Assembly: GCA_037379345.1 (NCBI GenBank)
Contig: CM074517.1
Location: forward strand, 36,332,001 to 36,396,000
Reading direction: 5' to 3'
Length of the DNA: 64,000 nt
From: Perna viridis
Lineage: Eukaryota
In this document: one piece after another, positions 44,101 through 47,100 of the stretch
Layout: every line of letters starts with the position of its first letter
Numbering within the stretch: the stretch's first letter is position 1
Translations under genes and position numbers: made by a program
The notes under the pieces: model-generated
What the model was told of the DNA's origin: nothing
Databases searched by the model: none
What the model saw: only the letters and a program-made list of their open reading frames with translations

Positions 44101-47100
44101 TCTTGACCGTTCAAGTTGTCTGTAACAAATGACAACATATTTATTAAATCATGTCAGATATATCGCTGTGTTAACATGGTAAAAGAAGAACAAAAACGTA
44201 ATTCTGTGATGTCAGATTCATTGTAACAATTATCCATAGACAACTTACATTCTTTATTTTGTATTTTGAGATTTTCCAGTGTAGTACAATTGTTGAATTA
44301 CCATGCAACATTTTTCTTGATATTTACATTTTTTAATGTGTATGTCAGTTTTCCATGTCTGGTCTTTGTCCCTGGACTACATTCTATTGATTACCGCTAT
44401 AACCTTGGTTCCCTTGATTACTCTTTAAAATGTAATATGTTATCGATGTAATTTTCTAATAATTATATATATTTTATAATATAATATGTTCCTGTAACAT
44501 GCTCTTACTAAATGATTTTTTTTTCGTCCCAGGAAGGGAAATATCCACTGACAAAGATAACGTAGCCAACAGCAAAGTGGATATCGTTCTCACAGACTCC
44601 CTGTGATACTTGCCATCTCGACTTCAAGCCAGCAAATATTTAGTATATCAACATTTTCACTTCACATTACTATACATTTTAAAATGTGGTATGTTCATGA
44701 CTCGACAAAAAAGATTTCCCTTTACAAATAAAATAGTACTATAAGGTATGCTTTACCTTTACAAACAAATGCCTTCAGACTGCTGCAACTGTCGGGCTGT
44801 AGTCTATATTCTTGTTGATTTGTATAAAGCAAGGATTGACACTGGGAGTTTGTTAGCGAGTCAACTACAATTGATAAAATTGGTTAAAACTGAACCGAGA
44901 AGTCAGATTATAAATAAAAAAAATTGAAATACATAACACAAATAACACAACATAAACATATTCAAGTCAATTGCACAACGCATCATAAATGCTCGACTTT
45001 TGAAGTGTAGCAATTTAATGTACGACCGTTTGAAACTTCAAAAAAGTATATCTATTATCGATGGAGTTGAAGCAGGAGATAATGATATAAAAAACGTCAT
45101 CTAGTATTTATAATATTTTTTCATTACTCAGAAATTATAAATGGGGAAAATGATATTACAAGAAATGCTTACGATATTTAGTATGGTTCTACCTAAAAAC
45201 CATGCAGAGAAGATTCACCATATCTCAAGATAATCAATTAAACTGTTTATATACATTTGTTAGCATCTTAAAACAACATTTTTTGACTGTTTATAGTGTA
45301 AAAATTCTGGCGGGAAATTTTCCCGTACTTTTCTGTAGTAGAATGAAACAAATTTTTAGCGGGCAACTTTCATTTGCACTTTTATTTTCGAATACAGTTT
45401 CTGTGAGACCTACTGAAGGATTTTCAATAAAAATATTTTGGATTGAGAAATGCATGAATCACTTATCATAAGGTTCTACCTAGTTTTAAGACATAGTTGT
45501 ACTTGAAAACAAAGCATTTTGAAATTAAATATACCTATACGATACGTATCCATACTTCGGAAACCCCCGCACATCTCACCAGAATTTCCTGGACATACTG
45601 TAGAGCATGTGGAATGACGACCAAATTTTGTTGTTGTGGAGAAACACTTGCAAGCTTTCCTCTGTAATGTTTATAATAGAACGTCTGTTTTATGTACATA
45701 TATATGTACGTACCTGTCTATTATATTTGTACAAAGTAATTTTGAAAGCTGCCAGTCATGATAATTCGTTCAAACCCAGATTTGCTACAAGACTACTAGC
45801 ATTTTACAAAAGACAATTTATCAGTGGATTTAAAAGGATACAAATATCTAAACCTTTCTACCTAAATAATCCATTAAAATATTCTTTCATAAGAAATCAT
45901 TTGTTGTTTCTGTGTGTTTAAGTTTTTGCCCTTTCGATTACGATATCTGAATTTCGTGGTAACATATTGGTTTATTTTTAATAGTATAAATCTCTTGATA
46001 AAATTTAAACCCCGTTAATCGTAATCAGTCGATGCTTTTCTAAATTTGCCTAATATTACAAATAGTTTACTTTCTAGTCGCTATGAGAATACAAAAAGAT
46101 GATAGGAATTAATATTACGTAAATTTGGAAAGTGATCGTTTAATTGTGTCTTTTATTGGATAAAGTTTATACCTGTACCCCTAGCTGGGAAGAAGAACCG
46201 CAATAGTTCAAGCATTCTAACATTTCATTATTCTGGATGTTAGTCTTTATTCTCAATGGCAATTTTTCTATTTTACAACCTACAAAACAGAAAAAAAAAT
46301 AGATTCAGTTTCTTATCCATTCTTCTACACTATTGAATGAACATTGATGAAACTTTCACAGAATCTTCATTTAGTGTTTAATGTGTGCATCTTGAATTTT
46401 AGATATCGATCTGACTTGTTAAAGTCTCACATCATCAAACATGTTTTTATAACTCCCTGACGTTGGGAAATCCATCTCTTATCCGTAACTCATTCTGCAC
46501 AACCGAACAGAATTTAATGAAACATACATAGAAACTTTATTACATATTACCATTGTGCACCATTTTCTTCAAATTTTGATCAAAATCAGTTTTAAGGTAA
46601 AACATTGGATGTTATGAAATAGGAGAGTGGGGTATCATTTTATTGAGCATTACTCGCAGTTTTTTTTTTCTAGTTTATATTGAGTGATGCATCAATTAAT
46701 GAATGTTTCAGTGTTTTTGTTCTTCACAAATTATAGTTAATAACAATAGATGATGAAATAAGTAACAATAGTATTGAATGGAATTTTACTATAGTTTGTC
46801 TTACGGTGAGAGCATTTATATATGTATAATACTTATTGAAAAGATATTGAATTACAAAAAAAAATTAGATTAGTAAAAACAGAAGTGATACCTGTCTGAT
46901 CGTCTGACCTTACCTAAGTATTCTGGCCATGGTTTTTCCAACCAAACGCCTACATTTTGCAGATTACACGATTCTAGAAACTGCAAAAGCTCTGAGCCGT
47001 ATTCTACGATGGCTCCAGACAAGTGTGTATTACAGAAAGTGGAAGCATCTTTCCACGAAGCAACTTCAGTTACATGGTATAGGGTACTGGGGTATGCTGT

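Follow-up and report, generated by a model that had tools for sequence, protein, structure and literature searches.

C-type lectin-like domains (CTLDs) and WSC domains are both well known, and in bivalves they occur in tandem. In the double-loop CTLD fold the two termini are close together and face the membrane, while the long loop projects outward as a variable, semi-independent ligand region; this loop and beta4 hold the canonical sugar site as well as calcium sites I-III (PMC7618208). The WSC domain, whose first and last strands lie side by side, binds glucan in some fungal proteins and protein in Kremen1 (PMC9024836). A survey of bivalve C-type lectins took its proteins by the Pfam model PF00059 and, in the part of the text available to us, names WSC only among the partner domains (PMC10140915). 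In a 64,000-nucleotide stretch of Perna viridis contig CM074517.1 (the window, to which all coordinates refer unless stated otherwise; the contig is 49.7 Mb long and the genome 723 Mb), we found three adjacent genes on the minus strand, referred to as A, B, and C, which together with paralogs D, E, and F on the same contig very probably encode a WSC domain nested within a single CTLD. This would be a new arrangement of two familiar domains; we found no paper describing a WSC or any other domain nested in a CTLD in the literature covered, which included the available parts of PMC4581086 and PMC10140915 and had subscription papers outside its scope.

The arrangement is most easily followed in gene A (splicing of A-F is predicted from DNA). 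Exon 2 (46914..47096) encodes the N-terminal half of the CTLD, consisting of beta1, alpha1 with its Cys, alpha2, beta2, and a PW motif, with alpha2 terminating in a Cys that is specific to the family. Exon 3 (46173..46279, phase 1 in and phase 0 out) encodes the first half of the WSC domain with Cys 1-3, and exon 4 (45535..45661, phase 0 in and phase 1 out) the second half with Cys 4-8, CPGN, and CGG. Exon 5 (44757..44864) then supplies the C-terminal half of the CTLD, with beta3, beta4, and beta5, three Cys, and FVC, but without WND. The initial annotation had placed such a domain-in-domain ectodomain at 44757..47096, and both ends are exact, since on the minus strand exon 2 begins at 47096 and exon 5 ends at 44757; exon 2 of A likewise reads as it was quoted (SWKDASTFC...GAIVEY...ELLQFL...VGVW). 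Splice sites of exons 2-5 are AG/GT throughout in A, B, and C, and the WSC pair is flanked by phase-1 introns, as was claimed, with phase 1 after exon 2, phase 0 after exon 3, and phase 1 after exon 4 in A-D and E; F has the same four exons. Cys counts are identical in all five genes A-E (two in exon 2, eight in exons 3-4, and three in exon 5). The NS.CQ motif that had been assigned to exon 5 is present in A, B, and C, while in D-F only its Cys is kept.

Several sequence comparisons indicate that exons 2 and 5 are the two halves of one CTLD. On a profile of 19 intronless CTLDs from the same genome (125 positions), exon 2 matches at positions 7-46 and exon 5 at positions 93-122, and the two exons joined without the WSC score 8.0-16.6 bits, which is equalled by 2, 0, 0, 0, and 0 of 500 shuffles; exon 5 alone is weak in D and E, where 15 and 8 of 500 shuffles reach its score. 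In the reverse test, a Mytilus-only profile without the WSC columns gives canonical CTLDs up to 23.5 bits. When the sequences of the PDB were searched, 47 of the 49 matches of the exon-2 profile (E<=10) had the CTLD fold and were without exception aligned at beta1-alpha1 (best E=2.7e-04), all four matches of the exon-5 profile were CTLD C-ends, and lithostathine was matched by both profiles (residues 25-47 and 113-141 respectively). The helix-1 Cys and the three CTLD-type Cys of exon 5 are invariant, and two of the latter, the beta3 Cys and the Cys after beta4, are aligned with the canonical pair and found in all seven exon-5 rows. The WIGL motif of beta2 is degenerate (VWLE, AFTS, VLTH, AWTA, AWTG, and VYVG in A-F). 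In the ESM Atlas, exon 2 of gene B lies nearest to a Lectin_C cluster at 0.89, and ectodomain matches reach 0.77-0.78, which we treat as leads only.

Structure prediction was carried out on Mytilus proteins, namely XP_071153643.1 (P0009, the ortholog of A; ectodomain, predicted local distance difference test [pLDDT] 64.3) and XP_063419901.1 (P0012, the ortholog of C; pLDDT 71.2), using AlphaFold with alignments of 15-16 rows. The P0012 model aligns with whole CTLDs over residues 15/19-188/192, including tetranectin (Z 9.6, root mean square deviation [rmsd] 3.0, 87 residues aligned) and ASGPR1 (Z 8.8, rmsd 2.1, 81 aligned). For the P0009 ectodomain model, all 50 matches listed have the CTLD fold, over a range of 1-176 (best Z 10.2, rmsd 2.6, 87 aligned). 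These whole-CTLD matches span the insert, yet they align only about 80-95 residues, as many as exons 2 and 5 encode together, and the beta1/beta5 sheet, the two helices, and the beta2-beta4 sheet of the double-loop fold are all present by prediction with Z up to 10.2. Further, when residues 1-59 and 137-186 of the P0009 ectodomain (exon 2, and exon 5 with the start of exon 6) were submitted to complex prediction as separate chains with no alignment, they scored 0.69, and the best of three controls 0.13; the mark applied is attained by 51 of 78 solved microbial pairs and by 2 of 108 mismatched ones, and among eukaryotes by 39 of 65 and 2 of 126. At least 91% of contacts are shared between runs, partner pLDDT is at least 72, and the contacts comprise beta1-beta5, beta2-beta3, and Cys20 of helix 1 with Cys172, the last Cys of exon 5 (error 0.9 A). 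The two halves are thus predicted to pack together with the very Cys contact that had been anticipated for them.

The resemblance to canonical CTLDs (Lectin_C, PF00059; carbohydrate-recognition domain 4 of the mannose receptor, 1egg; tetranectin, 1htn; and ASGPR1, 6yau) includes the predicted fold (Z 8.8-10.2, rmsd 2.1-3.0, 81-92 aligned) as well as the helix-1 Cys, the final Cys of F.C, and the beta3/beta4 Cys pair. Unlike canonical CTLDs, the A-F family has a discontinuous domain with a short, WSC-filled loop, no EPN or WND, and an additional Cys in alpha2 and in exon 6. A compact CTLD that lacks the long loop is also found in the link module (PF00193; TSG-6, aggrecan G1). Like the family, link modules carry a Cys close to where helix 2 ends. 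We did not adopt membership in that group, as its matches were weaker than those of canonical CTLDs (TSG-6 E=0.87; aggrecan G1 Z 8.0, rank 33) and exon 5 instead retains the three-Cys pattern of canonical CTLDs; Pfam Xlink was not listed at E<=1 for any of eight family proteins.

The insert itself is a complete WSC domain (PF01822, as in Wsc1 and Kremen1), as had been recognized, sharing with these the eight Cys, the Pfam match, the fold, and a place in a single-pass surface protein. A profile built from ten other WSC modules in the same genome gives spliced exons 3-4 of A-E 23.4-36.9 bits, which none of 300 shuffles equals for any of the five genes. Pfam WSC exceeds its gathering score of 27.8 in five of eight family proteins (28.2-33.9 bits), narrowly misses it in P0012 (27.6), and has no match in P0005 (XP_076093228.1) and P0027; in P0009 it covers all positions, 1-82 of 82, at E=3.6e-08. 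In the P0012 model, residues 61-156 align with yeast Wsc1 (7pz2; Z 11.9, rmsd 2.9, 94 aligned) and residues 71-154 with Kremen1 (5fws; Z 11.1, rmsd 2.3, 84 aligned). All eight WSC Cys are kept in every complete member examined (A-F and seven of seven Mytilus rows). The CGG motif at the last of them is present in A, B, and P0009 and absent from C, D, E, and five Mytilus proteins, and little else is shared among the nested WSCs. Elsewhere WSC occurs in tandem, whereas in A-F it is nested within another domain. The ordinary arrangement can also be seen in the same genome at G000:C4:12.09-12.11 Mb (L026/L072, minus strand), where intact tandem CTLDs are followed by a WSC module.

The nesting coincides with the loss of the long loop. 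With the WSC removed, 17-19 residues separate beta2 from the beta3 Cys, compared with 35-42 in 14 of 18 canonical CTLDs (the other four spacings were dropped as counting artefacts), so that about 20 long-loop residues are gone. EPN and WND are absent from all 11 ectodomains checked. The initial annotation had named just these two as missing; gene A does carry a QPD, although in exon 5 right before the second Cys (in the beta4 region, on the strand where WND sits) and outside the long loop; at this position the Mytilus orthologs P0009 and P0099 carry RPD and HPD respectively. Owing to the loss of EPN/WND and of the long loop, canonical lectin activity is very unlikely. The split also removes the lectin fold from the view of domain scans, as had been expected. 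Against the Lectin_C gathering score of 22.6, the best value among 12 single exons is 15.4 bits (the Pfam hints of both WSC and Lectin_C in these exons are all sub-threshold), P0041 (XP_052091493.1) reaches 13.6 bits, and the seven other family proteins have no match; consequently Lectin_C passes in none of the eight proteins, and WSC in five. The CTLD+WSC proteins of the bivalve survey (PMC10140915) contain the same two domains, but the A-F family fails the PF00059 filter of that survey.

The same colinear order is found in Mytilus RefSeq models, which are independent of the splicing predicted for the Perna genes. These RefSeq and UniRef records, which besides those named above include XP_063422627.1 (P0003, the ortholog of B) and XP_071138195.1 (P0013), have the layout of A-E, are orthologs or paralogs with 49-55% ectodomain identity, and are named only “uncharacterized” or “WSC domain-containing”, with no mention of a lectin fold in the names. 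Fourteen Cys are invariant in all seven aligned Mytilus proteins (two in exon 2, eight in the WSC, three in exon 5, and one in exon 6). In a tree, each of A-E groups with a Mytilus protein (three of ten inner branches are starred), and because of this orthologous pairing the WSC insertion should be older than the divergence of these species. A search with the ectodomain returned nine Mytilus proteins and one fungal WSC, and word-index protein searches with exon 2 (23 and 3032 candidates) returned no match. Full-length family members outside Mytilus were not found in a profile search that gave 74 proteins, the rest being unnamed single-exon pieces, which is no proof of their absence elsewhere. 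Gene models without some of the exons (P0076, P0090, and P0102) were not counted as exon skipping. P0027 (312 aa) has an exon-2-like segment at 252-304, after a different Cys-rich region that we take to resemble VWD/C8; the split module may therefore also occur inside larger proteins.

Based on these observations, we propose that the locus encodes a small mussel receptor family in which the WSC heads vary, the lectin part forms a rigid pedestal, and the tails either signal or do not, a reading to which we assign a probability of roughly 0.7 as a whole. The products of A-F are predicted from their sequences to be single-pass cell-surface receptors. Exons 2 and 5 would fold as one compact, calcium-free CTLD closed by a disulfide between helix 1 and beta5, the WSC would have four disulfides, and a seventh bond would probably join the alpha2 Cys to the exon-6 Cys. 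As the long loop of a CTLD faces outward, the WSC would sit at the tip, likely as the ligand-binding part, with the lectin domain acting as the pedestal. Diverged WSC surfaces would recognize different ligands, which are no less likely to be proteins than glycans, and with their unlike tails some members would signal and others would not, in the manner of paired receptors.

Several points weigh against this proposal. Each AlphaFold job gave one confident model of five (71.2 vs. 50.0-38.5, and 64.3 vs. 52.6-39.4) from shallow alignments, and the models were built on Mytilus orthologs rather than on proteins of the window. Of the route suggested by the initial annotation, AlphaFold followed by Foldseek, the second step gave no match at E<=0.001, although the models do align with whole CTLDs across the insert, and the WSC region of the P0009 model, which is poorly modelled (pLDDT 35-66), matched no structure. 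The pass in complex prediction may come from likeness to solved CTLDs and shows this likeness rather than a measured fold, and the seventh disulfide was not among its top contacts. CTLD-profile scores lie under the Pfam cut-off. Phase 1 is found in five of the six introns up to the transmembrane exon of gene A, and since it is so common in these genes, exon symmetry alone says little about shuffling; nor was a donor locus identified for the WSC cassette.

The nested fold might instead serve as a beta-glucan pattern-recognition receptor in which a WSC glucan site replaces the calcium/sugar site, as the initial annotation had it, but we consider this unlikely. Fungal WSC domains include a beta-glucan-binding lectin (PMC9024836), WSC stands among the immune-type partner domains of the bivalve survey (PMC10140915), and the conserved Tyr motifs in the gene B tail can be counted in favor of such a role. 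On the other side, Kremen1, the sole animal WSC matched structurally, binds proteins (PMC9024836) and, by the title of its entry, a virus. In addition, the nested WSCs are not rich in aromatics (5-10 F/Y/W, with Trp in one of five, vs. 5-14 and Trp in seven of ten among the other WSCs of the genome) and share little besides Cys, which is a weak argument against a glucan receptor. Less probable still is that the lectin core provides the main binding surface, either through a calcium-independent secondary site or through a composite CTLD-WSC groove, with the WSC as a spacer or oligomerization unit; dectin-1 and NKG2D are calcium-free CTLDs that bind ligands without the canonical site (PMC7618208), and in the P0009 model the WSC is less well defined than the lectin halves, but it lies at the loop position farthest from the membrane and has retained all eight Cys (in A-F and seven of seven Mytilus rows). 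Finally, it is very improbable that the halves pair between two chains as a domain-swapped dimer or are degenerate flanks forming no CTLD, for although long-loop swapping is known for some CTLDs, the complex test on separate chains is blind to cis vs. trans pairing, and only one model of five was confident in each AlphaFold job, both single-chain jobs yield a CTLD closed in cis, the first and last WSC strands are adjacent (PMC9024836), and the helix-1 Cys and the CTLD-type Cys of exon 5 are invariant.

Returning to the proposed family of WSC-headed receptors, exon shuffling is a plausible origin of the nested WSC. At the ten other WSC loci of the genome, an internal phase-0 donor is found at the same place in all ten, phase-1 acceptors in all ten, and phase-1 GT donors in nine; WSC is a mobile two-exon module in the Perna viridis genome. 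In two canonical CTLD genes, a phase-1 donor directly follows W-x-W-x-D-G, where the long loop begins, which is a possible landing site for the WSC cassette. The shuffling of a symmetric 1-1 module, as first suggested, is thus in keeping with both the 1-0-1 WSC at ten loci and the phase-1 intron in two CTLD genes, while the order of events does not follow from them. In this view the WSC, whose N- and C-terminal strands are neighbors, would have been taken up as a two-exon 1-0-1 cassette by a phase-1 intron where the long loop begins, and the expansion of the family on one chromosome would have come later. A broader view, in which the long loop is a recurrent exon-shuffling socket in marine invertebrates that takes up whole binding domains in place of the sugar site, and the mussel proteins are paired receptors, signalling or tailless, whose variable WSC heads bind self or microbial ligands, is tentative and in our estimate rather doubtful. 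Elsewhere in the genome, at G000:C5:46.70-46.85 Mb (L016, L017), about 50 near-identical WSC modules of two exons each follow one another in tandem, spaced by about 2.77 kb, and represent either a poly-WSC protein of great length or an expansion in the assembly.

The locus would provide a natural case in which one binding domain has been swapped into the exact ligand site of another, and since the exon boundaries are still readable at the swapped site, gene structure can be linked to a change in receptor specificity. It also marks a blind spot, as bivalve lectin catalogues based on Pfam, such as that of PMC10140915, cannot see these proteins; if the socket idea is true, whole families of hidden lectin-fold receptors would be missed by Pfam-based censuses. 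The short members of the family (256-258 residues) are easily expressed, making fold and ligand directly testable, and the looped-out design could be a ready display scaffold.

The common layout of A-F consists of a lectin N-half exon, two WSC exons, a lectin C-half exon, a stalk, a transmembrane helix, and a tail. In gene A, exon 1 (47832..47880) encodes the signal peptide, with an ATG, a hydrophobic 16-mer, and a phase-1 GT donor. Exon 6 (43703..44119) encodes a short segment with the invariant Cys, which is the predicted partner of the alpha2 Cys, followed by a Thr/Ser-rich stalk; exon 7 (43302..43389) encodes the transmembrane helix and an RRRR stop-transfer, and exon 8 (41189..41756) the cytoplasmic tail. 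The gene model is an open frame of 548 residues comprising signal peptide, ectodomain, Thr-rich stalk, transmembrane helix, and tail. The tail is long and Ser/Thr-rich, contains RRxS-type sites, and is conserved in Mytilus, with 48% identity to that of P0009 over 183 residues.

The other two genes of the window, likewise on the minus strand, follow the same plan. In gene B, exons 2-5 (53888..56007; 56007-55834, 55501-55392, 55064-54935, and 53992-53888) have the nested layout of A, and exons 6-8 (50948..53390; 53390-53280, 52679-52604, and 51488-50948) encode the Cys segment, the transmembrane helix, and the tail; exon 1 was not located. Its ectodomain is 50% identical to that of P0003, and the Tyr motifs of its tail (VYT.V, AYDEVYQP, GSYAG, and DDDLY) are all kept in that ortholog. 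Among them is a YDEV motif. Gene C has a signal peptide and the nested layout in exons 1-5 (61434..63685; 63685-63625, 63108-62935, 62495-62386, 61950-61824, and 61541-61434), with an ectodomain 49% identical to that of P0012, and exons 6-8 (60031..60951; 60951-60802, 60429-60354, and 60046-60031) encode the Cys segment, a short stalk, the transmembrane helix, and a tail of about seven residues; P0012 ends alike and is near-tailless. The tails of the adjacent genes A, B, and C are therefore very unlike each other, and each is conserved in Mytilus.

All further paralogs lie on the same contig, D at 8 kb outside the window, E and F at a distance of about 4.2 Mb, and H at about 9.6 Mb. In paralog H (L089:2588-7926, plus strand; G000:C7:26.75 Mb) a WIG motif is present, the alpha2 Cys is missing, and the WSC has diverged; no exon 5 was located for it. 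Upstream of H, another tail exon that is similarly rich in Tyr (L091:6046-6483, plus strand) suggests a further paralog. About 20 kb from E, gene G (L069:6698-564 and L068:8690-10078, both minus strand; G000:C7:32.20-32.21 Mb) encodes a short receptor whose CTLD lacks both the long loop and a WSC and is followed by a Cys segment, a transmembrane helix, and a Tyr-rich tail. Its exons of 183 and 75 nt are separated by a phase-1 intron at the same place as the WSC site, and this 4.5-kb intron has repeats inside and no WSC remnant. Gene G is possibly an empty-socket relative of the nested family. As a WSC-less ancestor it was not accepted, because its 11.1 bits on the family profile fall inside the range of canonical CTLDs (0.3-23.5) and so do not mark it as a sister of the family.

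RNA reads of the species (three raw runs, 19-25% of each, and one contig run) were compared with exons 1-5 of gene A, and none fell on these exons, a result that speaks neither for nor against their expression or joining. Reads were found at gene A only over intronic repeats, where transcribed repeat fragments at 45128-45555 and 46305-46625 are partly matched by hundreds of reads, and none of the listed database entries that share the window stretch is recorded as RNA. Downstream of gene A, an isolated open frame of 110 codons (35878-36207, minus strand) has Tyr-x-x-hydrophobic motifs and resembles a receptor tail exon, with no ectodomain exons of the nested CTLD/WSC family found for it. At 27132-30523 (minus strand), the six-frame listing shows a remnant of a Gypsy-type retrotransposon with pieces of a gag zinc knuckle, reverse transcriptase, and RNase H.

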